From: Candidatus Nanopelagicaceae bacterium
GTDB lineage: Bacteria > Actinomycetota > Actinomycetes > Nanopelagicales > Nanopelagicaceae
Length of the DNA: 64,000 bases
Direction of reading: 5' to 3'
NCBI GenBank assembly: GCA_018883345.1
Contig: VEQG01000007.1
Coordinates: forward strand, 866 to 64,865
Part shown: piece after piece, positions 13,572 through 46,329 of the stretch
Numbering within the stretch: the first letter of the stretch is position 1
Layout of the letters: each line of letters opens with the position of its first letter
Made by a program: the position numbers and the translations under genes
The notes under the pieces: model-generated
Database searches by the model: none
Seen by the model: only the letters and a program-made list of their open reading frames with translations
Told to the model about the DNA's origin: nothing

Positions 13572-14399
13572 CTACAAAATAGTCGAAATGAAGCGCTTTC
13601 CAACCCCATTTCGGGCAAAGGCAATCAAGGTTAAGCCGAACTCATCGGCCAATTCGATGGCTAGTGAAGTGGGCGCACTAACGCCAACCATGGCTGAGAT
13701 TCCAGCAGTTATAGCTTTTTGAACAATTTCATAACCGGTGCGGCCAGAGACCACCAAAGTCCAATCTGAAAGTGGTAGCTGGCCATCCATTAGCGCTTGA
13801 CCAATTACTTTATCCACTGCGTTATGTCGACCAACATCCTCTTTGGAATATTTGATTTCACCATGTGGATTTACCAATAGCGCAGCATGCAATCCACCGG
13901 TTTTAGAGAAAATTGCTTGATTCTTATCTAGCAGTTCTGTGTAATGCGAAAGCTGCATATCACTTTTGGTAGTTGGTTTTACTTTTGCTATTCCACGATT
14001 ATGTAGATCAGAAATGTTTTCGGATCCACAAACTCCACATGCAGAGTTCATGGTAAATCTACGATCTAATTTTCTTGAAAAATCGGGGGCATCATTTGTA
14101 ACTTCTGCAATAACTACATTGGCTCTCTGACGTGGCGTTAAAGATCTATCGCCACAAACAATTACTGAGATTAATTGTTCTGGTTTAGTTAGAAATCCTT
14201 CTCCCCAAAGAAAACCAGCAGCCAGCTGCAAATCTGCGCCTGGGGTGCGCATAGTGATACCAAGTTGTTCTTCTTGGTCACCTTTTTTAATTCTAATTTC
14301 TAATGGCTCTTCAACCACCACGCTATCTGATGTGGTGGTCTCAGAATCACTTCTCTTTACCTTTACCTTTTGAATTGATGAAGGCGCATCATTTTGCAT
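13572..14399 (-). CDS. fdhD: Formate dehydrogenase accessory sulfurtransferase FdhD (FdsC equivalent)
   Basis: 275 aa. SACGVCG, GGLHAA and [11 protein letters not shown] motifs of FdhD. Its start overlaps the betA stop by 11 nt. Confidence 0.8.
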
Positions 14400-16032
14400 G
14401 ACGATAAAACTCAGTGTGATCTGGCGCTAATGTACCTTTGCCGATAATTAAATCAGCAGCACGTTCTGCAACCATCATCACTGGCGCATAGATATTTCCA
14501 TTGGTTACATATGGGAATACTGAAGCGTCTACAACGCGTAAACCTTCGACTCCATGAACTTTCATAGTCTCTGGATCTACAACAGACATTTCATCAGTTC
14601 CCATTTTCGCGGTGCATGATGGATGCAGCGCAGTTTCCGCATCTTTTCTCACCCAATCGAGAATCTCTTCATCGGTTGATACCGATGGGCCAGGTGAGGT
14701 TTCGCCTGCATTCATTGAATCCATTGCTGGTTGGGTCATGATGTGGCGTGCCTGGCGAATTGCCTCAATCCATTCACGTCGATCTTGATCCGTAGAGAGA
14801 TAATTAAAAAGCATTGCAGGTTTCTCAAGTGGATTTGTGCTCTTAATCTTTAACCAGCCACGAGAATCTGAATACATCGGGCCGATATGGAATTGATAGC
14901 CATGTCCACCTTTAGGTCCAGAACCGTCATAACGAATTGCCAGCGGCAAGAAGTGATACATCAAATTTGGATAGGCAACTTCATCATTACTTCTGGTAAA
15001 GCCGCCTGCTTCGAAATGATTTGTCGCGCCAGGGCCAGTGCGGAAGAAGAGCCAAAGGAAGCCAATCCATGGTCGCTTCCAGAATTTCAGTGAAGGTTGT
15101 TGAGTTACTGGCTGCTTACATTTGTATTGAACATAAACTTCTAGATGATCCTGCAAATTAGCGCCAACTCCAGGCAAATGATGAACCATTTGCACACCAA
15201 GTGGCGCTAAATCTTTCTCATTGCCAATACCAGATAGCTGTAGCAGCTGTGGTGAATTAATTGCACCTCCGGAGAGAATTACTTCTCGTCCTTTGATTGT
15301 CTGCTTCTTACCTTTGATCAACACTTCGACGCCTACTGCGGTTTTGCCTTCAAACAAAACTTTAGTCACCATCGCGCGAGTTTTGATCTCTAAATTCTTT
15401 CGCTTCTTAACAGGATATAAATAGGCGCGAGCCGCACTTAAACGTCGACCTCGATAAACATTTCGATCAAATCGCGCAAAACCTTCTTGGCGATATCCAT
15501 TTACATCTTTGGTTAAATTAAATCCAGCTTGTTGCACCGCTTCAAAAAAAGCTTTAAATAGCGGTCCCTTTGATGGACCTCTTTCGAGTTTGAGTGGACC
15601 ATCGCCACCGCGTAATTCACCTTTTGGATCTGCAATGCAAGTTTCCATTTTTTTAAAATATGGCAAGCAATGTGCAAAATCCCAATTCTGCATTCCTTGA
15701 TCTTTGCCCCAACGTTCGTAATCCAATGGATTGCCACGTTGAAAAATTTGGCCATTAATTGAAGAAGATCCGCCGAGGACTTTGCCGCGAGCATGATAAA
15801 TCTTTCGATTATTCATATGAGGCTCTGGTTCGGATTCGTACATCCAGTCGTAATACTTGCTACCGATTGGGAAAGCTAAACCTGCCGGCATATGTATGAA
15901 AACATCCCATATGTAATCTGGGCGACCCGCTTCGAGAACTAATACCTCTTTATTCGGATCTGCGCTCAAACGATTAGCTAAAACGCAACCTGCCGAACCA
16001 CCACCGACGATGATGTAATCATAGGTTTTCAA
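14389..16032 (-). CDS. betA: Choline dehydrogenase (GMC flavoprotein oxidoreductase)
   Basis: 547 aa. N-terminal [23 protein letters not shown] motif and GMC signatures ([22 protein letters not shown]). The betaine context supports the choline assignment. Confidence 0.8.
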
Positions 16033-16053
16033 AGAACTACTCCGTTCATAAAT

Positions 16054-16092
16054 AAAACCGCCCGGCTAAATTCTATCTAGCCGGGCGGTTTT
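16054..16092 (-). terminator. Rho-independent (bidirectional-looking) terminator after opuAC
   Basis: AAAA-CCGCCCGGCTA-(9 nt loop)-TAGCCGGGCGG-TTTT. It is followed by a U-rich tract on the minus strand and lies 13 nt downstream of the opuAC stop. Confidence 0.7.
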
Positions 16093-16104: not shown

Positions 16105-17055
16105 TTACTTACCGGTCCAAGCCTTAACTTGGTCAGCGTGAGCATCAATCCACTTCTGTGCTGCCTCTTCAGGCTTCATTCCGCCTTCGATATCTGCAGC
16201 TACAGAGTTCTGATCATCATTTGTCCACTTAAAGTTCTGGACAAGCGTTGCAAATGGTGAACCAGAGTCCATCAACTTCTTCGAAGCAAGCTTCACAAGA
16301 ACTGTTTCTGGATAATCGGTTAGGCCGCTTGCTTTCGCAGCATCTGCCCAATCGTTAGCTGGGAAGTTAACGCGTGACTTCAATAGGCCAGGCATCTTCA
16401 CGAAGAAGGTCTGTGGCTCATAGAAGTATGCAATTGCAGGAGTCTTATTTGCCTCTGCCTTTGTAAGAACTTCAATCAGCGCAGCTTCTGAACCAGTTGA
16501 GATTGCTTTGAAGTTCAACTTATTAGCTGAAATCATCTTCTCACCGATTGTGGTGTAGCCAGGAGGGCCTTCATACCAAGCACCCTTGCCGCCAGAGTCT
16601 GCAGTCTTAAATAGATCTGCATACTTATTTAAGTTCTTTGAATCTGTGATGTCTGGGTATTTTTCAACCATCCAAGGTGCAACGTACATGCCGATACGAC
16701 CAATGTTGCCGTTTGGACCAACTTCAACGATCGCACCGCGATCTACCCATTCTTGCCAACGGCCGCCGCCCCAGTCTTCGATTACTACGTCAACTGTGCC
16801 AGCTTCCATCGCATCGTAAGTCACGCCAGCTTCTTCAAGTGTGGTCTGGTTGATTGTGCAACCTAGTTCCTTCTTAGCAATTTCTGCAACAACTTGTGCT
16901 GATGCTGTGTAACCATTCCAAGCATGCATTGCAATACCCCAGGTACCGCAATCTGCTGAAGCCTCTTCGGACTTTGAGCTACAAGCTGTTAGCACAAGGG
17001 AGAATGCCAAGACTGAAGATGCAAGCGCAATTTTGCGACCATGCTTTAATCTCAT
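16105..17055 (-). CDS. opuAC: Glycine betaine ABC transporter substrate-binding lipoprotein
   Basis: 316 aa. Lipobox LVLTAC. OpuAC/ProX-type SBP with Trp-rich ligand-box residues (WGGGRWQEW, WMVEKY). Confidence 0.8.
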   Translation of the reverse strand: MRLKHGRKIALASSVLAFSLVLTACSSKSEEASADCGTWGIAMHAWNGYTASAQVVAEIAKKELGCTINQTTLEEAGVTYDAMEAGTVDVVIEDWGGGRWQEWVDRGAIVEVGPNGNIGRIGMYVAPWMVEKYPDITDSKNLNKYADLFKTADSGGKGAWYEGPPGYTTIGEKMISANKLNFKAISTGSEAALIEVLTKAEANKTPAIAYFYEPQTFFVKMPGLLKSRVNFPANDWADAAKASGLTDYPETVLVKLASKKLMDSGSPFATLVQNFKWTNDDQNSVAADIEGGMKPEEAAQKWIDAHADQVKAWTGK

Positions 17056-17135: not shown

Positions 17136-19073
17136 TTACGCTCTTTTTGCGGCAGCTTGAGCAATTCGATCAATAGTTACACCAAGCAAAAGAATGACTA
17201 ACCCAGCAACTAAACCTTTACCTTGAAGTTCTGGCTTTGAACCGCCAAGAATTACTAGGTATCCAAGACCACCTGAACCAACGAATCCACCAATGACAAT
17301 TACTGCCAGCACGAAAATCATTCCTTGATTGGTGGCAAGTAGTAGCGCCTTCTTAGAAGCAGGTAATTGCACTTTAGTAATAATTTGTCGGACATTAGAA
17401 CCGGCTGCAGTGGCCGCTTCAACAATGGTCGCAGGAACTGCCCTTATTCCCTCTCCAACAATTTTTACCACTACTGGAATTGAATAGATGATGCCCGTAG
17501 CAATCGCAGTAAATCTAGTTGGGCCAAATAGGCCAAGCATCGGAACTAGATATACGAAAGCAGGAAGTGTTTGTCCTGCATCTAAGAATGGACGTAAGAA
17601 GGCATCGGCTTTATTACTTCTACCAACCCAGATTCCTAGACCGATTCCAATAATCATTGTTAATAGAGTTGCCACAATTGTTTGGGTTAAAGTAATCATC
17701 GCATCAAACCAAAGGCCAGATCCCACAATTAACATCAAAAGTGAAAATGTAAGTATTGCTACGCGATAACCACCCATTACCAATGCCACAATCACAAACA
17801 TGGTGACCGTCACATACCAAGGTGCTCTTGCAAGAACATCTTCAATTGGATTTAGGACCCAATTTGAAATTAAATCTTTGAAACCCACAGTTAAAAAATA
17901 TAAGTCTGTGGTTAAGAAAGTATTAACTTTGTTAGTTACTGTTTCAACTTGCAAGGCAATACTAAATTTCTCAGGAAATACTGCTAGAAATTCCACAAAA
18001 CTTGATAACAAGGTCGCTACCGCTGCAAATACTCCAGCGCCAATCACCTTATTTCGGCGCGCCTTTAATTGAGCTGGTGTAGGTGGAATAAATGATTGTT
18101 GCTTCTTTGCGGCCGCACTTGTGGCTCGATCCAGCATGATGGCTACAAAAACCACTGCAAAACCTGCCACAAAACCACGACCAACATTTCGGATGATTAG
18201 CGCTTCGACCACTGGTTTACCAAGTCCAGGTGCGGCAATTAAAGCGGCGATAACCACAAATGAAAGTGCGGCCATAACTGTTTGATTAATACCTAGCACA
18301 ATCATTTGCTTTGCCATTGGCAGTTGTACTTTGCGCAAAGTCTGTTTATTGGTAGCGCCCATCGATATAGAAGCTTCTACGGGAGAAAAGTTTAAAGTCC
18401 TAATTGCATGTGAAGTAATTCTGATAGTTATCGGAATGCTGTAAACCATGGTTGCAATGGTTGCCGCAGCTACGCCAATCATAAAGAAGAGGGCTAACGG
18501 AGCGAGATAAACTAAAGTAGGAAGGATTTGGGCTAAATCCAACATTGGTGTAAGAATTTTTAATACTCGATCGGATAGGCCAGCCCAAATTCCAAGTGGA
18601 ATTCCGATTGCAAGTGAAAGTAATACTGCCGCGATGGTCATTGCAATTGTGTCCATCGTAAATTGCCACATGCCAAGTGCTCCGCAAGCAAGTAAGAGTG
18701 CAACCGATAGCAGTGCAATTCTTAAGCGACTTGTTGCATAAACAATGAAACCAACTATTGCGATAACTCCAAACCAACCAATGTATGGTGCTGGAGCGCC
18801 ATTAGTTGGAACCGAGATATAGGTACGAATAAATTCTACGAAGCCGGTTATTGCTAACCGGATTGGGTTAAATAGGTATATAAAAAGTGGACTCTTAGTG
18901 CGATTACCTCGGATTGATTCGGCGGCATCACCAAACACTGTAGTAACGGGAGTGTTTGAAGATACTGCCAATTCCATGGTGTCGCGGCCCTGTAACAGTT
19001 TGGCCAGGGCCCACCAGATGGCAACTAAGCCAAGCAGGAAATAACCCTTATGTTGCTTTACTTTTTCCAGCAT
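17136..19073 (-). CDS. opuAB: Glycine betaine ABC transporter permease, tandem-fused double ProW/OpuAB domain
   Basis: 645 aa. The two halves are clearly paralogous (LAIGIPLGIWAGLSDR...LPTLVYLAPLALFF vs IIGIGLGIWVGRSNK...LPAFVYLVPMLGLF). Each half ends in ...DR(A/I)..AAAK. Confidence 0.85.
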   Translation of the reverse strand: MLEKVKQHKGYFLLGLVAIWWALAKLLQGRDTMELAVSSNTPVTTVFGDAAESIRGNRTKSPLFIYLFNPIRLAITGFVEFIRTYISVPTNGAPAPYIGWFGVIAIVGFIVYATSRLRIALLSVALLLACGALGMWQFTMDTIAMTIAAVLLSLAIGIPLGIWAGLSDRVLKILTPMLDLAQILPTLVYLAPLALFFMIGVAAATIATMVYSIPITIRITSHAIRTLNFSPVEASISMGATNKQTLRKVQLPMAKQMIVLGINQTVMAALSFVVIAALIAAPGLGKPVVEALIIRNVGRGFVAGFAVVFVAIMLDRATSAAAKKQQSFIPPTPAQLKARRNKVIGAGVFAAVATLLSSFVEFLAVFPEKFSIALQVETVTNKVNTFLTTDLYFLTVGFKDLISNWVLNPIEDVLARAPWYVTVTMFVIVALVMGGYRVAILTFSLLMLIVGSGLWFDAMITLTQTIVATLLTMIIGIGLGIWVGRSNKADAFLRPFLDAGQTLPAFVYLVPMLGLFGPTRFTAIATGIIYSIPVVVKIVGEGIRAVPATIVEAATAAGSNVRQIITKVQLPASKKALLLATNQGMIFVLAVIVIGGFVGSGGLGYLVILGGSKPELQGKGLVAGLVILLLGVTIDRIAQAAAKRA

Positions 19074-20098
19074 TAATTGACTCCGGCAATTAGCCCAAGC
19101 ACATCTTCTGCTGAGACCACACCAATAGATTTTCCATTATCAACTACGTGCACTGGGTGATGAGCTTCAAGGATCTTTGAAGTCGCTTCGCGAATGATGG
19201 TATTTGAAGCTAATTCAATACTAGCCGCAGTTTCGTCTGAACGAAGCGGCCTTGCTAAGTACTTAAGAGTCAAAACATGTGACTTTGCGATATCTCGCAC
19301 GAAATTAGCTACGTAATCATCTTTTGGATTGGCAACTAACTCTTCTGGTGTGCCCACTTGTATCAGTGCACCATCGCGCATGATTGCAATTCGGTCACCA
19401 ACTTTTGCTGCTTCTTGCAAGTCATGAGTGATAAAGACCATGGTTTTACCTAAATCATGATGCAAACGAATAACTTCATTTTGCATGTCGCGACGAATCA
19501 ATGGATCTAAAGCTGAGAATGGTTCGTCTAAAAACATAATTTGTGGATCTACTGCAAGCGCGCGTGCCAAACCAACGCGCTGCTGCATGCCGCCAGATAG
19601 TTGTTCTGGGTAAGCTTCGGAATAACCTTGTAGGCCAACTAATTCAATTACTTCATGGGCTCGCTTGTGACGTTCTGCTTTTGATACTCCATTAATTTCT
19701 AAAGAGTATGCGATGTTATCGACAACTTTTCGATGTGGAAGTAATCCGAAATGTTGAAAGACCATTGAAAATTTAGTGCGTCTAAGTTCACGTAGTCGAT
19801 TGGCATCTACTTTGAGAATATCTTCCCTGTCATAAACCAATTCGCCTTGGGTTGGTTCGATTAATCGAGTCATGCAGCGAACCAGGGTTGACTTACCTGA
19901 ACCAGATAAGCCCATTACAACGAAAACTTCGCCCTTTGCTACTTCAAAAGAGACATCTCTTACGGCGATGGTGTTGCCGGTCTTGTTTCGAAGTTCGGTG
20001 CGAGTTAAATCAGCATCCGGAGTACCAATTAACTTCTCAGCGTTTGGCCCGAAAACTTTCCAAACATTCTTAACTGAGATCATCGACGTTGATGACAT
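19073..20098 (-). CDS. opuAA: Glycine betaine/proline ABC transporter ATP-binding protein with C-terminal CBS-like domain
   Basis: 341 aa. Walker [10 protein letters not shown], signature LSGGMQQR, Walker [12 protein letters not shown]. 1-nt overlap with the permease gene. Confidence 0.85.
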
Positions 20099-23029: not shown

Positions 23030-23080
23030 TTTTCGCCTTTCGCTTGCTTGACCTGAGCCAACCTTAGAGAATACGCTCAG

Positions 23081-23104
23081 ATAATGGAACAGGGGTTCCA
23101 TTAT
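23081..23104. promoter_or_regulatory. Perfect 10-bp inverted repeat, candidate IclR operator in the divergent promoter
   Basis: ATAATGGAAC-AGGG-GTTCCATTAT lies in the 122-nt spacer between the mttB homologue (start 23029) and iclR (start 23152). A further GGAAC half-site is at 23107-23111. Confidence 0.45.
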
Positions 23105-24572: not shown

Positions 24573-24934
24573 AATTCCTGCCATTAATCGAAGACGCAAT
24601 CAAGAAGCCGGTTTTTGGTTGCCAGATGTGTGGTCAATGTGTGCTCCACTCAACTGGAATGGTTTGTCCAATGACATGCCCAAAAACTCTTCGCAATGGA
24701 CCTTGTGGCGGAGTTCGAGAAAATGGCAATTGCGAAGTTAAACCAGAGATGCAATGCATTTGGGTTAAAGCATATGATCGCAAAGAAACTCTACATCTAC
24801 CTCAGGTTTGGAAAGATCACTACAACGATTTGCGCCCACCTGTAGATATGCGTCTAAAAGGAACTTCTTCTTGGTTAAATTTAATTACCAAGCGAGATAA
24901 GCAAACACCAGCTGGCTGGGCGGCTAATGAGTAA
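24569..24934 (+). CDS. MetV-like protein (methylene-THF reductase C-terminal Zn-ribbon domain)
   Basis: 121 aa, Cys-rich (CQMCGQCVL...CPMTCPK..NGPCGG...C), as in the MTHFR_C/MetV proteins that partner MetF in acetogens. ATGA overlap upstream and 8-nt overlap with metF. Confidence 0.7.
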   Translation: MKFLPLIEDAIKKPVFGCQMCGQCVLHSTGMVCPMTCPKTLRNGPCGGVRENGNCEVKPEMQCIWVKAYDRKETLHLPQVWKDHYNDLRPPVDMRLKGTSSWLNLITKRDKQTPAGWAANE

Positions 24935-25826: not shown

Positions 25827-25829
25827 GAA

Positions 25830-37350: not shown

Positions 37351-37354
37351 GTTT

Positions 37355-39874
37355 TTAGCCCAAAATCCTTTCATTGCTTGAATCGAATACAGGAGTAATT
37401 CCAACCTCTGCAATGCTGCATGGATATTGCTCACCCAAATACTCAACTAAGAATTTATTTCCAACCTTAGCCATTTCGGTAGGAATGAATGACATCAGAA
37501 TGTGCTTGCCAAGTGATGGCGCTGAACCTGCAGAAGTTACATAAGAACGACGTCCATGTGAATCTTCGATGGTCTTTCCATCAAGAGTAAGAATTGGTTC
37601 CTTGCCAAGCATGTATCGCTTAACACCTGACTTTGATGTGTGATCATCAACGAAAAGTGTGCAAAGCATTGTTACTGGCTTCTCAGCGCGATGCTTCTCA
37701 TGCGCAGCGCGACCAATGAAATCCTGCTCTTTCAACTTTGGTGTTTGCATTCCGCATTCAACAACGTTGTATTCAGTTTCAAGTTCTGCGCCATAAGCAC
37801 GATAGTTCTTCTCAAGTCGCCCAGTGGTTCCGTAAACACCGATACCAACTGGAATCAAACCGTGGTTCTTTCCTGATTCCCAAATTAGATCCCAAAGCTT
37901 CTCGCCTTGTTCCATTGGAATGTAAAGTTCCCAACCAAGATCTCCAACGTAAGAGATACGAGATGCCAGAACTCGAAGTGAACCAATTTCGATAGTCTTG
38001 CAAGTACCAAACTTAAATGCTTCATTTGAAACATCTGCTTTGGTAATCGCTTGCAAAATCTTGCGGGCATTTGGACCCCAAATACCAATAGTTGTGTATG
38101 TAGATGTTAAATCTGCAATTGCGGCAGTGCCATCTTCTGGCAGTAGATCTGAGAACCACTTCTTATCTGCCATACCGTGTGCACCACCCGTTACTACTCG
38201 GAAGTGATTCTGGCCCAAACGCATGATGGTTAAGTCAGACTTGAAGCCACCATTTGGACCAAGCACTGGCGTGTAAACCACGCGACCAATTGCGACATCC
38301 ATCTGACGTAGCGCTGCCTTCTGAACTACTGCGAGCGCAGATGGGCCGGTGATATCGAAGATAAAGAACGCTGAAAGATCAACAATTCCAGCAGTTTCAC
38401 GCATCTGTAAGTGCTCAGCGTTAATAATCGGCGACCACCAACGTGATTCCCATTCAGCTTCGCGCGGCATAACTTTTTCACCGAATTTTGCAACTAGTTC
38501 TTTATTTGATTCATACCAGAATGGACGCTCCCAACCAGCGGTCTCATAGAAAACTGCACCTAGTGCTTTTTCACGATCATACATAGCTGATTTACGAACG
38601 CCACGGTTTGATTCGTACTGTTCGTTTGGATGAACGATTCCGTAAGTCTTGTTAAAGCTTTCCGCTACGCGGACCTTTACGTGTTCGCGTGCTTTCTGAT
38701 GCTCATGGAAACGGGCAATGTTTGATGCATGTAGATCAATCTCAGAATCGCCTAACACCATCCACTCTGCAACTGCGCGACCGGTTCCTGGGCCTTCTTT
38801 GATCCAAACAGCTGCAGCAGACCAAAGTCCCTTAACTTCTGGAGTCTCACCAAGAATTGGCATGCCATCTGGAGTGTAAGAAAGAATTCCATTGATTGCA
38901 TATTTTTCACGGACAGTTTCATCGCCAAGAATTGATGGAACTAATTCGTAAGCATGCTCATCTTGAATATCGAAATCCTTCTGAGTGAATGGGAATTCGG
39001 TTGGAGATAAAGCTGCTGCTGCATTTGAAGGAATTTCATTTGCTTCGTAAAGAATTGGTCGGTGAGCATATGAACCAATTTCCAAACCGGTACCGTGTTG
39101 ACGCTCGTACATATTGGTATCCATGTCGCGCAGAATTGGCCATTCGATATCGCCCTTTGCATCCTTGAAGAATGGCACCGGACCAACGTCCTTCATCTGG
39201 TGAACCGCTGGAGTCAATGGAATCTCTGCGCCTGCCATCTTTGCAAGCTGTGCTGACCAGCAACCAGTTGCAATTAATACATACTCTGCTTCGATGAAAC
39301 CTTGATCAGTTTCTACGCCTTTGATGCGACCGTTTTCAACTTTCATGCCAGTAACTTCGATGTTTGCAAAGCTTTGCGCTGCACCCATTTCAATCGCCTT
39401 TTCACGCATTAAAGTACCGGCGCGCAGTGAATCCACCACACCCACTGTTGGCTGGTAATAACCACCGAGAATCACTGATTCTTCAACATAAGGCACTAAC
39501 TCTTTAACTTCTGCCGGAGTAACAATTCGACCACCATCAATGCCCCATGACTTAGCACTTGTGATGCGTCTAGCTAATTCCTGCATACGTTCCGGAGTAC
39601 GTGCAATTTCGATGCCGCCACATTCAGTAAAGCAATTTAGCTCTTTGTACTGCTTCATTGAATCCGCAGTGATATGAGCCATTTCTTTTGAATGATCCAC
39701 TGGGAAAATAAAGTTTGATGCGTGGCCAGTAGATCCACCTGGATTAGGTAGTGGCCCTTTATCAATCTGAACTAAGTCTTTCCAACCTAGTCGAGCTAAG
39801 TGATACATAACGGAATTGCCAACAATGCCAGCGCCGATAATTACGCACTTAGCTTTTGCAGGTAGTTGTGCCAT
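37355..39874 (-). CDS. Dimethylglycine (or sarcosine) dehydrogenase/oxidase: FAD domain fused to GcvT-type folate-binding aminomethyltransferase domain
   Basis: About 839 aa. VIIGAGIVGNS dinucleotide motif. GGSTGHASN lies at the position of the covalent-FAD histidine in DMGDH/SARDH/DMGO. C-terminal GcvT-like domain. The start is refined to the ATG at 39874, preceded by AAGGAG. Confidence 0.8.
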   Translation of the reverse strand: MAQLPAKAKCVIIGAGIVGNSVMYHLARLGWKDLVQIDKGPLPNPGGSTGHASNFIFPVDHSKEMAHITADSMKQYKELNCFTECGGIEIARTPERMQELARRITSAKSWGIDGGRIVTPAEVKELVPYVEESVILGGYYQPTVGVVDSLRAGTLMREKAIEMGAAQSFANIEVTGMKVENGRIKGVETDQGFIEAEYVLIATGCWSAQLAKMAGAEIPLTPAVHQMKDVGPVPFFKDAKGDIEWPILRDMDTNMYERQHGTGLEIGSYAHRPILYEANEIPSNAAAALSPTEFPFTQKDFDIQDEHAYELVPSILGDETVREKYAINGILSYTPDGMPILGETPEVKGLWSAAAVWIKEGPGTGRAVAEWMVLGDSEIDLHASNIARFHEHQKAREHVKVRVAESFNKTYGIVHPNEQYESNRGVRKSAMYDREKALGAVFYETAGWERPFWYESNKELVAKFGEKVMPREAEWESRWWSPIINAEHLQMRETAGIVDLSAFFIFDITGPSALAVVQKAALRQMDVAIGRVVYTPVLGPNGGFKSDLTIMRLGQNHFRVVTGGAHGMADKKWFSDLLPEDGTAAIADLTSTYTTIGIWGPNARKILQAITKADVSNEAFKFGTCKTIEIGSLRVLASRISYVGDLGWELYIPMEQGEKLWDLIWESGKNHGLIPVGIGVYGTTGRLEKNYRAYGAELETEYNVVECGMQTPKLKEQDFIGRAAHEKHRAEKPVTMLCTLFVDDHTSKSGVKRYMLGKEPILTLDGKTIEDSHGRRSYVTSAGSAPSLGKHILMSFIPTEMAKVGNKFLVEYLGEQYPCSIAEVGITPVFDSSNERILG

Positions 39875-39896
39875 GGTTTTTTCTCCTTGATTTGCC

Positions 39897-40535
39897 TTAG
39901 AGGCTCTTTCTGATGGTGGTTTCGAAACCTTCGATATGTTCTCGCATCGCAAGCTCTGCCGCATTCTTGTCTCCGTCAAGAATTGATTGCAAGAGCGCGC
40001 GGTGTTCGATGATTGCATCTTCTAATTCAGAGACGCGGTCTAGAGCCATAAACCAGATGCGCAGCGCGTGTGCGTAATACTGATCTAACGTTGACACTAG
40101 AAAATCATTATGTGTTGCAGCATAAATCTGATGATGAATTCTTTGATCCAAGTGAATCAACTTCTCCATCTTAGGTTCGCCTTTAATTGCATCAATTTCT
40201 TTTATTAATTGATCTATTACAGATTTATCGGTCGCGCTAGCGCGCTCTGCTGCAAGACCTGCTGCTTGGATCTCTAATTGGCCACGTACTTCCGAAATCG
40301 CAGCCAAATCTTTTACATCGACGCCAGCTACAAACATTCCGCGCCGTGGATAAACTTCAATTAATTTCTCGTTGGCTAAATTACGTAGCGCTTCTCGTAT
40401 TGGTGTACGTCCCATTTCTAATTGGGACATTAATTCGACTTCAGAAATTACTGATCCTGGACGGAGCTGACAGCTAATAATCATCGAGCGAATCTGGGCA
40501 TAGGCCTCATCGCTTAACGATTGATTTTCCCTCAT
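39897..40535 (-). CDS. GntR-family (FadR/FCD subfamily) transcriptional regulator
   Basis: About 212 aa. wHTH (ISEVELMSQLEMGRTPIREALRNL) plus helical FCD domain. The start is refined to the ATG at 40535. Confidence 0.8.
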   Translation of the reverse strand: MRENQSLSDEAYAQIRSMIISCQLRPGSVISEVELMSQLEMGRTPIREALRNLANEKLIEVYPRRGMFVAGVDVKDLAAISEVRGQLEIQAAGLAAERASATDKSVIDQLIKEIDAIKGEPKMEKLIHLDQRIHHQIYAATHNDFLVSTLDQYYAHALRIWFMALDRVSELEDAIIEHRALLQSILDGDKNAAELAMREHIEGFETTIRKSL

Positions 40536-40563
40536 TGGCTGAATCAAACTCACGGCGCCAAGG

Positions 40564-40578
40564 TATATCAGTGATATA
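40564..40578. promoter_or_regulatory. 15-nt palindrome, candidate GntR operator
   Basis: TATATCA-G-TGATATA lies in the 76-nt gntR/moaD divergent spacer. Confidence 0.3.
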
Positions 40579-40611
40579 TCAACTTCAAGGGGGTGCGCTA
40601 CGCTATTTCTC

Positions 40612-40848
40612 GTGGCGAGGGTCAACTTTTATGCGGCGGCGAAGGCGGCAGCCGGCACGGCCGAACTCAAGGTTCCCGCTTCATCCATCGGGGAGCTGAT
40701 TTCAAGCCTTAGCCAGCTAAGCCCCGAAATGACCAAATTGCTGCCAACCTGCTCTTACCTGCTAAATGGGGAATCCTGCACCAACTTGGCGCAATCTTTA
40801 TCAGATGGCGATCAAGTGGATGTGCTGCCTCAGTTTGCCGGAGGCTAA
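40612..40848 (+). CDS. moaD: Molybdopterin synthase sulfur carrier subunit (MoaD/ThiS fold)
   Basis: 78 aa ending in ...QFAGG (C-terminal Gly-Gly). GTG start. Lies adjacent to the Moco genes. Confidence 0.75.
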   Translation: MARVNFYAAAKAAAGTAELKVPASSIGELISSLSQLSPEMTKLLPTCSYLLNGESCTNLAQSLSDGDQVDVLPQFAGG

Positions 40849-41843
40849 CCGCCAATCGCGGACATTGGCCGAACTGGTTTTACGAAATCTGGATTATTAA
40901 TTCCATGTCCTGGCAATTTAGCTTTAACGCTTAGTCCAAAAGCTTTCACAATATCTTCTAGTTTTTCTCGCTCAGTCAAATTTCGATTGCGCAAAATAGA
41001 TCTCAAATCTGTCTCTTCGTTTGAAAATAGGCAGTTCCTTAATTGACCATCAGATGTAAGTCGTAACCGATCACAATTTGCACAGAATGAACGGGTAACA
41101 CTTCCAATGATTCCAACCGTTGCCGGACCACCATTTATGTAAAACTCTTCAGCTGGAGATGAACCGCGCTCTGCCACTGGTGTTAATTCAAATTCTGAAC
41201 TTATTTGGTTATAAATTTCATCTGCCGTAATCAAATTACTTCTAGTCCAAGCATCACCTGCATCAAGTGGCATTTGTTCGATAAACCTTAAATTTAAACT
41301 CTCTTTAAGTGCCCACTTTAATAATGGCAAGGCTTCATCACCATTTATATCTCTCATCAAAACTGTATTTATTTTGATAGGGGCCAATCCTGCCGCTCTA
41401 GCTGCGGCAATTCCTTCGATAACATCGTCGTATCTATCTCTAAAGGTAAGCCTCTTAAAACGTTCCCAATCCAAAGTATCTAGACTTATATTGATTCTTT
41501 TTAAACCAGCTTTAGCTAATTCGTTTGCGACTTTTGCTAAAGCTACGCCATTTGTCGTCATGGATAGTTCTGGCACATTTTCTAATGCATTGATTCGAGA
41601 GACTATCTCTACAATATCTGGGCGTAATAAAGGTTCTCCCCCGGTTAATCTGACCTCTTTAATCCCTTGAGATACGGCAATTTCAATTACTTTAACTATT
41701 TCTGGGGCTGTCAATAAGGTCTCGCTAGGTAGCCATTTATCGAAATTAAATGGCATGCAATAGGTGCAACGCAGTGAACAGCGATCTGTAAGTGAAACTC
41801 GTAAATCTCTATGCACTCGGCCATATTTATCAATCAAACTCAT
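40845..41843 (-). CDS. moaA: GTP 3',8-cyclase (radical SAM)
   Basis: 332 aa. CSLRCTYCMP radical-SAM cluster motif and C-terminal CANCDRLRLTSDG auxiliary cluster motif. Confidence 0.9.
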   Translation of the reverse strand: MSLIDKYGRVHRDLRVSLTDRCSLRCTYCMPFNFDKWLPSETLLTAPEIVKVIEIAVSQGIKEVRLTGGEPLLRPDIVEIVSRINALENVPELSMTTNGVALAKVANELAKAGLKRINISLDTLDWERFKRLTFRDRYDDVIEGIAAARAAGLAPIKINTVLMRDINGDEALPLLKWALKESLNLRFIEQMPLDAGDAWTRSNLITADEIYNQISSEFELTPVAERGSSPAEEFYINGGPATVGIIGSVTRSFCANCDRLRLTSDGQLRNCLFSNEETDLRSILRNRNLTEREKLEDIVKAFGLSVKAKLPGHGINNPDFVKPVRPMSAIGG

Positions 41844-42253
41844 GCGCTATTCACCCACTCGGTACTACCGTCAGCAAATTTTTGATATTTCCAGATAGGT
41901 AATTCCGCTTTAACTCGCTCAACCAACTCTTGGCAACATTCAAATGCTGGGCCACGATGAGCCGAAGATACCGCAACTACAAATGCACTTTCTCCGATTG
42001 GAATCAAGCCGTATCGATGCGCAACAGCTACTGCTTTTACTTCATACTTGCTAGCAACTTCGTTTGTAATTTTTTCAATTACCGCTTGGGCAGTTGGATG
42101 AATTTCGTAATTTAAAGATATCACTGCTTTGTTTTTATCATTGTTGCGCACATCTCCACTAAAGGTAGCAATAGCACCTGCTTCATCCAGCTTAACCAAT
42201 TCAGTTAAAGCCGTTGCAGATATTTTCTTATCAGTTACTTGTGCTGTGATCAT
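41840..42253 (-). CDS. moaE: Molybdopterin synthase catalytic subunit
   Basis: MoaE-like (GAIATFSGDVRN, AVAHRYGLIPIGE, SSAHR, PIWK). The start is uncertain (42253 or the ORF-track 42295). Confidence 0.8.
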   Translation of the reverse strand: MITAQVTDKKISATALTELVKLDEAGAIATFSGDVRNNDKNKAVISLNYEIHPTAQAVIEKITNEVASKYEVKAVAVAHRYGLIPIGESAFVVAVSSAHRGPAFECCQELVERVKAELPIWKYQKFADGSTEWVNSA

Positions 42254-42716
42254 TTCCAGCCAACTGATCATGAATATGTGGTGCAAGTCTTTCAATAATT
42301 ACCAAGCCATCTTTAACCGCTCCTGGTGAACCGGGTAGATTTACGATTAATGATTTGCCGGTTACGCCCGCTAATGCGCGAGATAAGTCTGCAGTTGGAA
42401 CTTTTTCGCGAGAGTATGCTCTGATTGCTTCAGCAAATCCTGGTAACTCACGTTCAATCAATGGTTTTGTGGCTTCTGGTGTTACATCTGTTGGTGAGAT
42501 TCCAGTTCCGCCAGTTGTGACTATTAAATCTATCTCTTCTGACAGCGCGCTCTTTATTGTGGTTGCAATTTGATTGATGTCATCTTGAACCAGCTTATGG
42601 CCCAAAACTTGATAACCCAATTGCGTTAATCCCTCTTTGAGCGCTGCCCCACTTAAGTCTTTGTAAACTCCAGCACTTGCACGATTACTAGCAGTAATGA
42701 TTAATGCCTTTTTCAT
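42231..42716 (-). CDS. mog: Molybdopterin adenylyltransferase (Mog/MoaB family)
   Basis: SNRASAGVYKD, TTGGTGISPTDVTPEAT, LPGFAEAIR and NLPGSPGAVK resemble E. coli Mog. The start is refined to 42716 (ATGA with the moaC stop). Confidence 0.8.
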   Translation of the reverse strand: MKKALIITASNRASAGVYKDLSGAALKEGLTQLGYQVLGHKLVQDDINQIATTIKSALSEEIDLIVTTGGTGISPTDVTPEATKPLIERELPGFAEAIRAYSREKVPTADLSRALAGVTGKSLIVNLPGSPGAVKDGLVIIERLAPHIHDQLAGNDHSTSN

Positions 42717-43186
42717 CGCTGCCAATCGCCAGTTTTGCCGCCGCTTTTACTCTCTACTTGGACCGCATTAATGCTTGCATGGGGATCCATTGCTTTGATC
42801 ATGTCTATCAAGGTAAGTCCTGCTACCGAAACTGCAGTCAGGGCTTCCATTTCAACTCCAGTGCGATCAGTTGTTTTTGCAGTTGCCTGAATCGCTACGC
42901 CGTCGCTTACAATTCTTAGATCAATTTCTACTTTATTTAGGGCAATTGGATGGCAGAGAGGAATCAGCTCGCTGGTTTTCTTGGCGCCCATAATTCCAGC
43001 AATTCGTGCAGTTGCTAATACATCACCCTTTGGAGTTTGGCCAGAAGCAATCGCATTCAATACTTCAGATTTCATGGTTACTTTGCCAGTTGCGATTGCG
43101 ATACGAACCGAGATCTCTTTGCCAGAAGTGTCGACCATATTTGCTTCGCCTTTATCGTTGATATGGCTTAGATTGCCAGAACTCAT
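42713..43186 (-). CDS. moaC: Cyclic pyranopterin monophosphate synthase
   Basis: LSHINDKGEANMVD, KGDVLATARIAGIMGAKKTSELIPLCHP and EMEALTAVSVAGLTLIDM match MoaC. The start is refined to 43186 (ATGA with the moeA stop). Confidence 0.9.
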   Translation of the reverse strand: MSSGNLSHINDKGEANMVDTSGKEISVRIAIATGKVTMKSEVLNAIASGQTPKGDVLATARIAGIMGAKKTSELIPLCHPIALNKVEIDLRIVSDGVAIQATAKTTDRTGVEMEALTAVSVAGLTLIDMIKAMDPHASINAVQVESKSGGKTGDWQR

Positions 43187-44340
43187 AGTGGTAATCCTAG
43201 CCAACGAAGGGTGGTTGGTGGGTTGGTGCAAACTGCAAAACCATCAGCGTGCGCCAAACTTCTAAGCATTGCACTTCCTAAATACTTACCAATTTTGAAA
43301 TGTCCCTTATCTAAAGTTCCCAGTACCAATCTGGTGAATCCTGATTGAGCTTCAAAAAGATCATCACTAGAAATTACCGGAAGCGGCAAATTTGGCTTTC
43401 CTAGAATCGTGTTAATTAGCGGCGCGCCTAAAGTTAGCAATGCGACTACGGCTGACTGTGGATTTCCAGGCAAACCAATTAATGGTTTTCCATTCACCAT
43501 TGCTAATAGTTGTGGGTGTCCCGGCCGCACGGCAACTTTATCAACATGTATTACGCCATTTAATTTAGCTATTGCAGAGTGCAAAAAATCTCTTGGCCCA
43601 TCTGCAGTACCACCAGTTGTCACCAAAATATCAAACTGCTTTGATGCTTTATCTATGGCAGAGATTGTTAAATCTAACTGATCAGAAATATATTCAACTT
43701 GTAAGACTTGGCAGCCTAAATTTTCAAGCCATATTGGAAGCTGTGGACCTAAAGAATCTCTTACAAGTCCATCTTTGGGAAGTCCGGATAGTTGAATTTC
43801 ATCACCAAGAAGAAGTAACCCAACTGTTGGGCGTTTTGCTACTTCAATCTCATCGTAACCAGATGCAGCCAATAGACCGACCATGGCTGGTGTCAGCGTA
43901 GTACCTTTTTCAATTAGCACTTCATTCAATTTTGCTTCTTCACCGGCTGGACGAAAATCCTTTTCTTCTGAGGTTTCACCGCTAATTTGGTTGCCATTTA
44001 CAGTTGCATTTTCCCAACGCAGTATTCCAAATGCTCCTTCTGGAATTACGGCACCAGTAGCGATACCTAAAGCTTGTCCAGGTTCTAGCCTTCCTTGAAA
44101 AGGTGAACCAGCTTTGATCTCTCCGATTAAATTCCAAGGCCCATTTCCTGCGACTGCATATCCATCCATTGCACTTGTTATGTAAGTTGGTAATTCAACT
44201 AAAGATTTTGCAGCTATCGCTAGCACACGATTACTTGATTGATTTATCGGAACAATTTCAGTTGCTTGTAAGCGGACCAAATTTGCTAAATTGGCAGCGG
44301 CTACGCGAGCTTCATCCCAACTAGGCTCAATTAAGGTCAT
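43183..44340 (-). CDS. moeA: Molybdopterin molybdenumtransferase
   Basis: 385 aa MoeA architecture (SAMDGYAV, TTGGTADG, GLPGNPQSA). Confidence 0.85.
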   Translation of the reverse strand: MTLIEPSWDEARVAAANLANLVRLQATEIVPINQSSNRVLAIAAKSLVELPTYITSAMDGYAVAGNGPWNLIGEIKAGSPFQGRLEPGQALGIATGAVIPEGAFGILRWENATVNGNQISGETSEEKDFRPAGEEAKLNEVLIEKGTTLTPAMVGLLAASGYDEIEVAKRPTVGLLLLGDEIQLSGLPKDGLVRDSLGPQLPIWLENLGCQVLQVEYISDQLDLTISAIDKASKQFDILVTTGGTADGPRDFLHSAIAKLNGVIHVDKVAVRPGHPQLLAMVNGKPLIGLPGNPQSAVVALLTLGAPLINTILGKPNLPLPVISSDDLFEAQSGFTRLVLGTLDKGHFKIGKYLGSAMLRSLAHADGFAVCTNPPTTLRWLGLPL

Positions 44341-44882
44341 TGCGCCAATCTACTAGCCAAGTCAATTGCTTTAAACAGATCTGCTTGGGTATCAATGTCT
44401 AACAGGAACTCCGTTTCAACCAATGGAACTTGGTTAATTTTTAAGATCGCCACCAACTCCTTGAGCGACCTATTTTCAAGTGCCCCTAACGAACATAATG
44501 CACTTCTTAACTGATTGCTCTTATATAGCGCAGCTAGCGGCTGTACAAATCCTTCACTATCAACTGGCAGCGCCGCATCATCAACCAGTGATTGCTCTAA
44601 CTTTTCCAAAATTTTCGGAGCAAAAGGCATATCCGTTGCAAAAATCGCAACCAGTTCTGTATCAACTACATTCATAGCAGCTCCAATCGCTGCCACCGGA
44701 CCGCCACCGATTGGTTCTTCACGTACATAAATTGCATCAATATTGGTTTTAGGACCGACGATAATCAAATCATCTAACTCTGAAGTCAATATTTCCAAAA
44801 GAGATCTACCATTGATCTCTGCTTCAGATTTATTTGAACCAAAACGATGGCTGGTGCCTCCAGTCAATATAATTTTTTTCAT
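44337..44882 (-). CDS. mobA: Molybdenum cofactor guanylyltransferase
   Basis: 181 aa. ILTGGTSHRFGSNKSE N-terminal nucleotide-binding motif. ATGA overlaps on both sides. Confidence 0.75.
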   Translation of the reverse strand: MKKIILTGGTSHRFGSNKSEAEINGRSLLEILTSELDDLIIVGPKTNIDAIYVREEPIGGGPVAAIGAAMNVVDTELVAIFATDMPFAPKILEKLEQSLVDDAALPVDSEGFVQPLAALYKSNQLRSALCSLGALENRSLKELVAILKINQVPLVETEFLLDIDTQADLFKAIDLASRLAQ

Positions 44883-45649
44883 CGCATCGCTTCTCTAAGC
44901 GGCTTGCGCAATAAGAAAACTATTAATACTCCAATTACTAACATCACAGCAGAAAGCACATAAGCAGTATCAACATTTACATCTAATTCTTGGTAAATCA
45001 ACATGGTCCAGGTTTGTGTTACGCCAGGCAGCGAACCCGCAAACATTAAAGTGGCACCAAACTCTCCCATCGCTCTAGCCCAAGCCAATATTCCACCAGT
45101 TGCGATTGCACTTCTAGATTGTGGAATTGCAATCTTCTGAAAAAGTTCGTTGCCACTTACTCGATCAATAATTGCGGCATCTTCTATCTCTTTCGGCAAT
45201 TGTCTGAAATTAGATTCACAAATTAATACAACGAATGGCAATCCTACAAAGATGCCAGCTAGAACTACTGCACTTGAAGTAAATGGCATAGACCAGCCAG
45301 TTATTTCGTAAATATATTTACCAAGCAATCCATTTCTACCCATCAATGAAATGAGTGCAATTCCGGCAACAGTTGGCGGCAAAACAATTGGCGCCAGTAC
45401 TAAAGGACGTATTAAATTGCTAATTCTGTTTGAACTTTTCGCCAAAATCCAAGCCAATGGCACACCTAAGGTAAGCGAAATAACGGCAGCTAAAGTTGAG
45501 GTCCAAATAGATAATTTGATTGCAGTTAAATCAGATAGTGAACCCAAAAAGTTGCTCCAGGGAACTTTTGCCATTAGAGATACCAACGGTGCAATAATGA
45601 TTGCGGCCGCCGTAATTGACAATAACTTTGTCATTATTCCAAATTTCAC
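44879..45649 (-). CDS. modB: Molybdate ABC transporter permease
   Basis: 256 aa. CysTW/ModB-type permease with the EAA loop (EIEDAAIIDRVSGNELFQKIAIP). GTGA overlap with modA. Confidence 0.85.
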   Translation of the reverse strand: MKFGIMTKLLSITAAAIIIAPLVSLMAKVPWSNFLGSLSDLTAIKLSIWTSTLAAVISLTLGVPLAWILAKSSNRISNLIRPLVLAPIVLPPTVAGIALISLMGRNGLLGKYIYEITGWSMPFTSSAVVLAGIFVGLPFVVLICESNFRQLPKEIEDAAIIDRVSGNELFQKIAIPQSRSAIATGGILAWARAMGEFGATLMFAGSLPGVTQTWTMLIYQELDVNVDTAYVLSAVMLVIGVLIVFLLRKPLREAMR

Positions 45650-46329
45650 TTTGTATCAAACCCTTTGCTTTGTAGGTATTTGATTGCAGAACGCGATTTT
45701 ATGTAGCTCATAAAAGTATTAGCCCATCGATTCGTTTTCAATTGTGCTATTTGATAGGTAGTTGAGGCTGCCTGAAGATTTGCAAACTCTATTGCCCGTA
45801 AATTTTTGTTTGCTAAAACATCGGTGCGGTAAACAATAGCGGCATCGACTTCACCAGCCAGCAATTTAGCTAACACGCTAGAAGCTTTTGGTTCCAAAGA
45901 AACGGGTTTTGAAGTCACATTTTCTCCAATGAGGGCTGCTTCCGCTACAGATCCGCAAGGAACTTCACGCGCACATTGAATCCAAATTACCTCTTTATTA
46001 TTCAGGTCTGAAATCTTTTTAATTGATGAGCGATTAGGAACGGCTAGGACTACCCGGTTAATCAAATAGTCGCTACCTCCTGTAAATGGTTCGGCAGAGA
46101 CAAAAATATCTGCCGGTGCCCCCGACTTTATTTGCGTCATCAAAGTTGTTGATGATTGAAAAGAAAAAGTAATTTTTACTCCGGGGTGCGCCTTCTCGAA
46201 TCTCTTTCCTAGCTCTATATAACTCTCAATCAAGCTTGATGCGGCGAAAATGGTCACTTTTGATGAGGCATATGAATTATTTGAAGAAAATAAAGCAATC
46301 ATGAGTGCGAGTGCGATTTTCTTCTTCAT
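45646..46329 (-). CDS. modA: Molybdate-binding periplasmic protein
   Basis: Signal peptide MKKKIALALMIALFSS, then ModA-like FAASSL...F.SS..L..QI..GAPADIFVSA. The start is refined to 46329. Confidence 0.8.
   Translation of the reverse strand: MKKKIALALMIALFSSNNSYASSKVTIFAASSLIESYIELGKRFEKAHPGVKITFSFQSSTTLMTQIKSGAPADIFVSAEPFTGGSDYLINRVVLAVPNRSSIKKISDLNNKEVIWIQCAREVPCGSVAEAALIGENVTSKPVSLEPKASSVLAKLLAGEVDAAIVYRTDVLANKNLRAIEFANLQAASTTYQIAQLKTNRWANTFMSYIKSRSAIKYLQSKGFDTK

Follow-up and report, generated by a model that had tools for sequence, protein, structure and literature searches.

A putative B12-dependent choline/glycine betaine demethylation and one-carbon oxidation island in a streamlined freshwater acI actinobacterium

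Gene content and layout of the island

The DNA analyzed here is a stretch of 64,000 nucleotides (nt), referred to as the window, that corresponds to bases 866–64865 of contig C27 in genome G000, a member of the Nanopelagicaceae (freshwater acI lineage). From an open reading frame (ORF) listing and from Pfam and NCBIfam scans of the window proteins, we identified a block of ~33 kb that holds ~32 genes in five tightly packed transcription units. An earlier reading of the sequence (the original prediction) had named these genes, in this order and at these coordinates, and both the scans and the listing agree with it. It had also proposed that choline is converted to glycine betaine and its methyl groups oxidized through methyl-tetrahydrofolate (CH3-THF), MetVF, a dimethylglycine dehydrogenase (DMGDH) coupled to electron-transfer flavoprotein (ETF), Fhs in reverse and an NAD-dependent molybdenum formate dehydrogenase (FDH). 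Gene content, operons, synteny and genome inventories agree with this logic. We assign a probability of about 0.72 to the interpretation that the block is a B12-dependent choline/glycine betaine demethylation and one-carbon (C1) oxidation island, with flux inferred from sequence.

The first unit, on the minus strand from 23101 to 13572, reads mtgB-like, betB-like, opuAA, opuAB, opuAC, betA and fdhD. Diverging from it on the plus strand, from 23152 to 29129, are iclR and the genes for a corrinoid protein, metV, metF, a pterin-binding methyltransferase (MeTr), a RamA-type activase and a DUF1638 protein. The third unit returns to the minus strand (40625 to 29085) with gntR, the DMGDH-type gene, etfB, etfA, fhs, fdsG, fdsB and an fdsA::fdsD fusion; moaD stands alone on the plus strand as the fourth unit, and the fifth (minus, 46362 to 40845) comprises modA, modB, mobA, moeA, moaC, mog, moaE and moaA. 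Junctions are mostly overlaps or gaps of 0–80 nt: the betB-like ORF overlaps mtgB by 8 nt, the fhs/etfA junction is 0 nt, and the convergent DUF1638 and fdsA ORFs overlap by 45 nt. The true start of the DMGDH-type ORF probably lies near its residue 46.

Table 1 Features of the island and of a methionine-synthase-like module just outside it, in window coordinates
Feature	Position	Strand	Evidence or remark
fdhD/fdsC-type sulfurtransferase (FDH maturation)	13572–14399	−	PF02634 195 bits; TIGR00129 149 bits, above cut-off
betA, choline dehydrogenase, GMC flavoprotein	14389–16032	−	TIGR01810 827 bits, cut-off 732
OpuAC binding protein	16105–17055	−	PF04069
OpuA-type fused double permease	17136–19073	−	PF00528 twice
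OpuA-type ABC ATPase	19073–20098	−	PF00005
betB-like aldehyde dehydrogenase, probable betaine-aldehyde dehydrogenase (BADH)	20122–21597	−	Best NCBIfam TIGR01804 (BADH) 561 bits, below cut-off 669
mtgB-like non-pyrrolysine MttB-superfamily methyltransferase	21590–23101	−	PF06253 624 bits
Perfect 10+10 palindrome in the mtgB/iclR divergent spacer	23081–23104		Likely IclR operator
IclR-family regulator, first gene of corrinoid operon	23152–23916	+	PF01614, PF09339
mtgC-like corrinoid (B12-binding) protein	23913–24572	+	PF02310, PF02607; best NCBIfam MtgC_2 208 bits, below cut-off
metV, acetogen-type methylene-THF reductase subunit	24569–24934	+	PF12225
metF, acetogen-type methylene-THF reductase	24927–25826	+	PF02219
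mtgD-like pterin-binding methyl-THF:corrinoid methyltransferase (MeTr)	25830–26696	+	NF005719 325 bits, above cut-off
RACo/RamA-type reductive corrinoid activase	26569–28551	+	PF14574, PF17651, PF17650, Fer2; AcsV-like 422 bits
DUF1638	28548–29129	+	PF07796
fdsA, with FdsD fused C-terminally	29085–32186	−	TIGR01591 920 bits; FdsD PF11390 at residues 973–1027
fdsB, Nuo51-like beta subunit	32078–33559	−	
fdsG, 2Fe-2S thioredoxin-like gamma subunit	33556–33966	−	
fhs, formate-THF ligase	33977–35641	−	PF01268 881 bits
etfA, electron-transfer flavoprotein	35642–36595	−	PF01012, PF00766 for the etfB–etfA pair
etfB, electron-transfer flavoprotein	36595–37446	−	As for etfA
DMGDH/dimethylglycine oxidase-family enzyme, FAD and GcvT folate domain	37355–40018	−	PF01266, PF16350, PF01571, PF08669
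GntR/FCD regulator heading the DMGDH–etf–fhs–fds operon	39897–40625	−	PF00392, PF07729
moaD	40612–40848	+	ThiS fold, GG at end
moaA, moaE, mog, moaC, moeA, mobA, modB, modA: molybdenum cofactor (Moco)/bis-MGD supply	40845–46362	−	Pfam
mtgE-like homocysteine S-methyltransferase module, outside the predicted block	48272–49204	−	PF02574 242 bits

G000 measures 1.40 Mb in 58 contigs, with a completeness of 85% and a contamination of 6%. GC content is even (0.41–0.47) over the window and the genome contigs and therefore gives no pointer to a foreign contig. The nearest public FdsA loci, at 84–97% identity, come from metagenome-assembled genomes (MAGs) labeled Candidatus Nanopelagicaceae or Nanopelagicales.

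The palindrome between mtgB and iclR (ATGGAAC-N4-GTTCCAT) is the only perfect copy in the window. We considered an IclR operator shared across the sub-operons and rejected it: allowing three mismatches gave seven matches against 3.2 expected, none at another promoter. A riboswitch search covering Moco, B12, THF and glycine classes found none at gathering score in the window; its only structured RNA was a bacterial RNase P RNA of class A (147 bits; 63808–64000, minus strand), truncated by the window end.

Distribution and gene order in relatives

We compared the block with a family sample of 201 species-representative Nanopelagicaceae genomes in 18 genera (g1 being the genus of G000) and a class-level sample of 300 other Actinomycetes, mapping gene order by tblastn with the window proteins. 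An MtgB orthologue occurs in 41 of the 201 family genomes, distributed over g1 (15/19), g5 (12/20), g6 (6/6), g7 (4/20), g14 (2/2) and g15 (1/1). FdsA, also found in 41 genomes, has a near-identical distribution, and the DMGDH orthologue (at least 73% identity) is present in the same genomes and in four g10 genomes. One DMGDH orthologue (G198:C41:33244–35652) is broken into two neighboring matches and has an in-frame stop; a frameshift, a pseudogene or a fault in the assembly could explain it.

Genera g1, g5 and g7 share the same core order at 73–87% amino-acid identity. Where contigs permit, MtgB, FdsA and DMGDH lie on one contig in these genera, in the same order and about 7.5 kb and 8 kb apart, with etfBA kept next to DMGDH; the order is identical in G053 and G133 (g7) and in the closed genome G063 (g5). 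Within g7 the three markers co-occur, all of them being present in 4 of 20 genomes.

Beyond the family, MtgB orthologues (67–73% identity) occur in 28 of the 300 class-level genomes, and FdsA homologues at 65–74% identity in many. A 1.7-Mb genome of another family, G413, carries fdsABG, DUF1638, ramA, mtgD, metF, metV, mtgC and iclR, together with divergent mtgB, fhs, iclR, betB, opuA and a DMGDH-like gene. G292, from a second other actinomycete family, has the corrinoid operon, mtgB, betA, betB and fdsGBA within 22 kb. In most genomes of family f39, MtgB and FdsA lie 86–780 kb apart. Because separate lineages link this gene set in differing orders, we attribute the linkage to functional coupling and not to chance; the functional packaging suggested in the original prediction thus finds support both in the core order kept in three genera and in the re-linked components of two other families. 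The acI arrangement is the compacted extreme.

As to the question of whether the 33 kb are gained or lost as a unit, MtgB, FdsA and DMGDH are mostly co-distributed, but modules also occur alone: the block is modular and does not behave strictly as a unit, with the Fhs–FDH–Moco, DMGDH and Mtg modules each found singly in some family genomes. G004 (g5, 100% complete) has no MtgB and no DMGDH orthologue and carries gntR, fhs, fdsGBA, fdhD, modAB, moaD, moaAE, mog, moaC, moeA and mobA (C2:170000–189999), headed, as in the island, by a GntR/FCD-type regulator. From this module, formate/formyl-THF oxidation appears to be an independent unit. In g10 the DMGDH orthologue stands alone, and G006 (g6, 99% complete) has MtgB and MtgE and lacks FdsA and the DMGDH orthologue. 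The position of the Moco genes also varies: they lie 1 kb past DMGDH in g1 and beside fdhD on the other flank in g5 and G133, and moaA is on another contig in G053 and G172, G053 retaining moeA and mobA beside gntR. The resemblance to the methyl branch of the Wood–Ljungdahl pathway noted earlier extends no further than Fhs, FolD, MetVF, MeTr and FDH, all of them equally components of a generic THF-linked C1 pathway, and we have not filed the block as Wood–Ljungdahl.

A proposed route from choline to carbon dioxide, and a probable one to methionine

In the route that we propose, an OpuA-type importer would bring in choline or betaine, and BetA and the BetB-like aldehyde dehydrogenase would make glycine betaine. 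MtgB would methylate the corrinoid protein MtgC, from which MtgD would transfer the methyl group to THF, with RamA, possibly together with DUF1638, re-reducing oxidized cobalamin. CH3-THF would be oxidized by MetVF to methylene-THF (CH2-THF). The DMGDH-type enzyme would demethylate dimethylglycine, its GcvT domain yielding further CH2-THF, and pass electrons to EtfAB and from there probably to an unlinked membrane protein with FeS clusters and CCG domains; a DMGDH paralogue encoded elsewhere probably demethylates sarcosine to glycine. Housekeeping FolD would make 10-formyl-THF, Fhs in reverse would release formate with gain of ATP, and FdsGBA(D) would oxidize formate to CO2 with gain of NADH. 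The mod, moa, mog, moe and mob genes and fdhD would essentially build the sulfurated bis-MGD cofactor of the FDH, and cobalamin would have to be imported.

Several side observations bear on the choline supply. The mtgE-like gene, ~2 kb past the island end, heads an mtgE–pcs–mgtC operon (47105–49204, minus strand) whose second product resembles phosphatidylcholine synthase (132 bits to Pcs models, under their cut-offs); this suggests that choline may also be used for membrane phosphatidylcholine. A glycerophosphodiester phosphodiesterase gene at 382–1041 (minus strand) could supply choline, as could the choline-kinase-like and type I phosphodiesterase genes that adjoin the sarcosine dehydrogenase (SARDH)-like paralogue described below (L009:14274–16031).

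The island DMGDH and this paralogue both carry FAD DAO, FAO_M, GcvT folate-binding and GcvT C-terminal barrel domains. The island enzyme is closest to the dimethylglycine oxidase of Arthrobacter (1PJ5, 512 bits; 316 bits to mitochondrial DMGDH). The paralogue, an 811-residue DMGDH/SARDH-family protein encoded on contig C11, is 34% identical to the island copy and, among the structures compared, closest to mitochondrial DMGDH (486 bits). A paralogue of this type is found in 12 of the 18 genera of the family sample, and in G053 and G133 (g7) it lies a few kb past gntR and next to mtgE, that is, inside the island. It is the likely sarcosine dehydrogenase and our best candidate for that step.

Three steps had been described as conspicuously missing. 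They are indeed absent from the island, and for each we located an enzyme or a candidate elsewhere in G000. FolD, above its NCBIfam cut-off, is encoded on contig C42, so that together with the island metF, fhs and fds genes the gene set for THF-linked C1 oxidation is complete in G000. A search for sarcosine-oxidizing enzymes found no SoxA-type GcvT protein in G000 and did recover the SARDH-like paralogue on C11. Searches of G000 and of the 20 genomes of the genus gave no canonical ETF:quinone oxidoreductase. Contig C15 encodes a 677-residue protein that combines hydrophobic segments at its N-terminus with two 4Fe-4S motifs and two CCG domains, the architecture of mycobacterial EtfD (Rv0338c); on its architecture, this protein is a candidate ETF acceptor.

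The formyl-THF hydrolase PurU, also sought in the rest of the genome, went undetected in G000 and throughout the 16 island genomes of g1, and within that genus scored above cut-off only in three island-less genomes (G123, G140 and G192). With no PurU in the island genomes of the genus, Fhs is the only recognizable exit from 10-formyl-THF to formate, and the absence favors the Fhs route. Downstream, the recognized FDH parts are an alpha subunit with a 2Fe-2S/4Fe-4S N-terminus and bis-MGD domains (1412 bits to Rhodobacter capsulatus FdsA, 6TG9), a Nuo51-like beta subunit, a 2Fe-2S gamma subunit, the fused FdsD and FdhD/FdsC. The FdsA::FdsD fusion is likely present in other Actinomycetes too, where class-level matches extend to query positions 1012–1030. 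We also considered that fds had been acquired from Burkholderiales, prompted by the best non-acI FdsA loci, all from that order at 62–69% identity. We rejected this origin because other Actinomycetes in the class-level sample match at 65–74%, several of them into the fused FdsD part.

This FDH is the only molybdoenzyme recognized in G000: the other PF00384 protein is NuoG, and neither PF02738 (xanthine-dehydrogenase type) nor PF00174 (sulfite-oxidase type) has a match in the genome. We assign the Moco genes to the FDH for that reason, which bears out, for G000 and its genus, the original prediction that these genes and fdhD exist to mature it. The rule is not universal in the family, where moaA occurs in 53 of the 201 genomes, namely nearly all FDH carriers and about 15 without this FDH; moaA keeps its link with FDH in G004 and G184, which lack MtgB.

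The corrinoid genes also bear on methionine synthesis. The MetH model finds no full-length MetH in G000 but three separate pieces, all within the window, that cover model positions 2–318 (MtgE-like), 310–589 (MtgD-like) and 626–878 (MtgC-like). A search for MetE in G000 and in the 20 genomes of the genus was negative, and the island MetF, which scores only ~30 bits against canonical MetF structures, is the single PF02219 match and thus the only methylene-THF reductase (MTHFR) in G000. As G000 has no MetH-like or MTHFR genes other than those for the corrinoid protein, MeTr, MetF and the MtgE-like module, the role of the block goes beyond catabolism; the most likely reading is that MtgC, MtgD, MtgE and MetVF also serve as the sole methionine synthase and MTHFR of the cell.

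Comparison within the family points the same way. In each of the 16 island genomes of g1, the MetH matches come as split pieces only; three of the island-less ones have full-length MetH, and the fourth, G192 (56% complete), has no MetH match. The distribution of PurU in g1 mirrors that of MetH. MetH is further absent from 6 of 6 g6 genomes and from three of the four g7 island genomes, and g5, g14 and G133 keep it alongside the island. MtgE-like proteins are confined to MtgB carriers, with 38 of these 41 genomes having one and 0 of the other 160; in g7, mtgE sits next to gntR. These contrasts provide comparative evidence that the corrinoid core may have displaced MetH, and Fhs PurU, in several acI genera. 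We put at even odds the fuller scenario, in which gain of the island allowed loss of MetH and PurU and the betaine block became the only methionine synthase, MTHFR and route from formyl-THF to formate. If it is true, these B12-auxotrophic cells, which belong to the most abundant freshwater bacterioplankton, would depend on imported cobalamin, and on choline and betaine from algae, for their methionine, their C1 balance and their supplementary energy.

The acI genomes are reported to lack B12 biosynthesis and to carry an ECF transporter behind B12 riboswitches (PMC5301498). In G000 we found an AdoCbl-II riboswitch (41.4 bits, above gathering score) on C54 (G000:C54:~42060–45930; L113:8059–11930), beside gcvT. 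It precedes an SCO2322-family gene and genes for a CbiQ-like T component, a double ATPase and an ECF S component, a system that is probably responsible for cobalamin uptake.

The dual role raises the question of whether the corrinoid module is chiefly anabolic, a split methionine synthase made of MtgC, MtgD, MtgE, MetVF and RamA, with MtgB feeding betaine methyls to methionine and S-adenosylmethionine. The Fhs–FDH–Moco genes would then be a separate device by which environmental formate is oxidized or assimilated, and the block would be a neighborhood of C1 genes with no complete line from methyl groups to CO2. We consider this unlikely. G000 and most island genomes do lack MetH, MetE and another MetF, yet g5 and g14 keep MetH and carry the whole island, which implies a catabolic benefit. 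The halves can be found apart, with MtgB and MtgE but no FdsA or DMGDH orthologue in G006, and FDH without MtgB in G004, G122 and G184 (with adjacent Moco genes in G004 and G184, the mapped G004 module being gntR–fhs–fds–fdhD–Moco). Where they are together, however, DMGDH–etfBA shares an operon with fhs–fdsGBA and abuts the corrinoid operon in g1, g5 and g7, fhs directly follows mtgB in G413, and betA, betB and opuA share an operon with mtgB, even though the halves answer to separate IclR and GntR regulators with no shared operator. The two roles are also not exclusive, both having been shown in Ruegeria (PMC12478193).

The MtgB-like protein is encoded by the single MttB-family gene in G000; its ORF is uninterrupted, with no in-frame TAG, and its PF06253 match spans profile positions 19–500. 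The corrinoid protein and the pterin-binding methyltransferase are separate, stand-alone proteins, with the activase (RACo domains plus Fer2) and DUF1638 in the same operon. Among known structures the MtgB-like protein scores 417 bits against 4YYC, 391–393 bits against Desulfitobacterium hafniense MtgB (2QNE/9YCE) and 134 bits against the trimethylamine methyltransferase MttB. Betaine is contacted in D. hafniense MtgB by Y97, R312, H348 and F356 (PMC13080624). The first three are kept (Y122, R336 and H372 of the query) and Gly takes the place of F356, whose role may be taken over by a Trp four residues earlier, in an AGWLEGG motif common to 4YYC. We infer glycine betaine as the substrate from the context of betA, betB, opuA and DMGDH.

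It is improbable, in our assessment, that the enzyme instead demethylates another quaternary amine, such as proline betaine, carnitine, gamma-butyrobetaine, choline or phosphocholine, so that the first product would not be dimethylglycine. The lost aromatic contact would fit such a substrate. Retention of Y97, R312 and H348 argues for betaine, tempered by the finding that MttB-superfamily members with other substrates retain R312 and, in part, H348 (PMC13080624), and the nearest solved structure, 4YYC, was deposited merely as a putative trimethylamine methyltransferase. The genomic setting speaks for betaine: the sole MttB homologue of the genome sits in an operon with betB, opuA and betA, next to the DMGDH operon, and the link between MtgB and betaine genes is kept across genera and families.

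Several points weigh against the proposed oxidation line as a whole. The missing F356 contact makes another quaternary amine possible, and the BetB-, MtgC- and MtgE-like proteins score under NCBIfam equivalog cut-offs. The island DMGDH is nearest to an O2-using oxidase, its coupling to ETF being predicted from conserved adjacency, and the oxidative direction of MetVF, like its use of an electron acceptor, is a prediction. Fhs and FDH are reversible or multi-purpose, and the stand-alone gntR–fhs–fds–Moco module of G004 may chiefly serve external formate. No shared operator links the sub-operons, which have one IclR palindrome and a separate GntR regulator. The genomes behind the MetH comparison are MAGs, the MetH and PurU contrasts within g1 may reflect a single phylogenetic split, and G000 is only 85% complete, with 6% contamination. 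That the adjacency is a mere streamlining accident, with unrelated operons pushed together without functional coupling, is very hard to credit: the high coding density of acI genomes, the shifting flank of the Moco genes between g1 and g5/g7, the unlinked moaA of G053 and G172 and the wide separation of MtgB and FdsA in most f39 genomes would suit it, but the core order is kept across three genera, the same gene set recurs in other orders in G413 and G292, and MtgB, FdsA and the DMGDH orthologue come and go together in g7.

Other genes flank the island. To its left (8472–13523) lie genes for a zinc-dependent alcohol dehydrogenase, an IclR regulator, malate synthase and a PuuC-like aldehyde dehydrogenase. 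Besides G000, 10 of the 16 g1 island genomes have malate synthase, which was found in no g1 genome without the island (0 of 4). Its position relative to the island is constant where contigs permit (G023, G156, G051, G005, G038 and G064), and in g5 and g7 it does not adjoin the island. The region may provide a route for glyoxylate or a C2 skeleton. On the far side of the island, at 60112–61089 (minus strand), this heterotrophic acI genome encodes a member of the Sbt_1 family of Na+-dependent bicarbonate transporters (339 bits).

Relation to known systems

Lake bacterioplankton is frequently dominated by acI, a group whose sources of carbon and energy and whose needs for vitamins are still largely a matter of inference. 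In the family sample, roughly one species representative in five, mainly from five or six genera, carries a complete predicted line for B12-dependent choline/betaine methyl oxidation, with Fhs as its ATP-yielding and FDH as its NADH-yielding step; this line offers a testable freshwater counterpart to the 'methylovory' of SAR11 and roseobacters. The predicted growth needs, B12 and methionine or betaine, could aid cultivation. The papers searched contain no description of such an island in Nanopelagicaceae, only partial hints: Kang et al. reported FDH, Moco genes and a betaine/proline transporter only in acI strain IMCC19121, with the pathway not described (PMC5301498), a co-occurrence that the island explains, and Hamilton et al. 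predicted betaine use by acI-B (PMC5574706).

Individual components have well-studied relatives. The dimethylglycine oxidase of Arthrobacter globiformis (1PJ5) and the mitochondrial DMGDH and SARDH, which use ETF, share the FAD-DAO, FAO_M and GcvT folate layout and yield CH2-THF and not free formaldehyde; the island enzyme is nearest to the oxidase by sequence but lies in an operon with etfBA, like the mitochondrial dehydrogenases, so that its acceptor is a prediction. FdsGBAD of R. capsulatus and Cupriavidus necator (6TG9/6TGA) has a closely similar alpha subunit and has the beta and gamma subunits and FdhD/FdsC in common with the island, where, in contrast, FdsD is fused to the FdsA C-terminus and fdhD lies at the far end of the block. 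The MtgB/MtgC/MtgA system of D. hafniense and MtgB of Methanolobus, which act in anaerobic betaine methylotrophy (PMC13080624, PMC6855144), belong to the same superfamily, share three of the four betaine contacts and follow the same logic of corrinoid protein plus activase. Their island counterpart differs from D. hafniense MtgB in the Gly at the F356 position and in a WLEGG motif as in 4YYC; its host is an aerobe, and the methyl group is predicted to go to CO2 and not to acetogenesis, respiration or methanogenesis.

Whole pathways provide the closer comparison. The 37-kb compatible-solute island of Colwellia psychrerythraea 34H is likewise a large single locus for serial demethylation of betaine to glycine, but it uses a heterotetrameric sarcosine oxidase and no corrinoid system, and FDH and Moco genes were not reported in it (PMC3691474). 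SAR11, also a streamlined oligotroph, has been shown experimentally to oxidize betaine methyls to CO2 through metF, folD, fhs and an NAD-type FDH that has fdhD, mobA and moeA as neighbors, using the pathway for energy and not for growth on C1 compounds (Sun et al. 2011, PMC3160333). In SAR11 the genes sit at several separate loci, whereas those of the island form one block; the 14CO2 and ATP evidence belongs to SAR11, the island being known from its genes. SAR11 also lacks an MtgC homologue and is thought to use a first step of the betaine–homocysteine methyltransferase type (PMC12478193).

The corrinoid part is matched by MtgBCD(E) of Ruegeria pomeroyi DSS-3 and Phaeobacter inhibens (Mausz et al. 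2025, PMC12478193). Both systems have MtgB, a corrinoid protein, a pterin-binding methyltransferase, MtgE, RamA and DUF1638, place MetF next to mtgD and occur in many carriers without MetH (about 70% in the marine case), and downstream demethylase and THF genes are often co-located in the marine genomes. The marine evidence is genetic and proteomic, the island being known from genes alone: mtgC and mtgD mutants are methionine auxotrophs, and MtgBCDE, MetF2, RamA and DUF1638 are induced on betaine (PMC12478193). Our system differs in its host, a freshwater actinobacterium and not a proteobacterium, in its single MtgB (the marine bacteria have up to seven), in the pairing of MetF with MetV, and in the presence of NAD-dependent FDH, Moco and molybdate uptake genes in the same block. 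Since MetH appears to have been replaced by the island's corrinoid core, the marine result of 2025 now reaches a further phylum and a further biome. The pathway logic is thus not new, combining the THF-linked C1 oxidation of SAR11 (PMC3160333) with the MtgBCDE system of aerobic marine bacteria (PMC12478193); what is new is how complete the package is, with Fhs, FDH and Moco genes, where the three 'missing' steps are encoded, and the comparative evidence for displacement of MetH and PurU.

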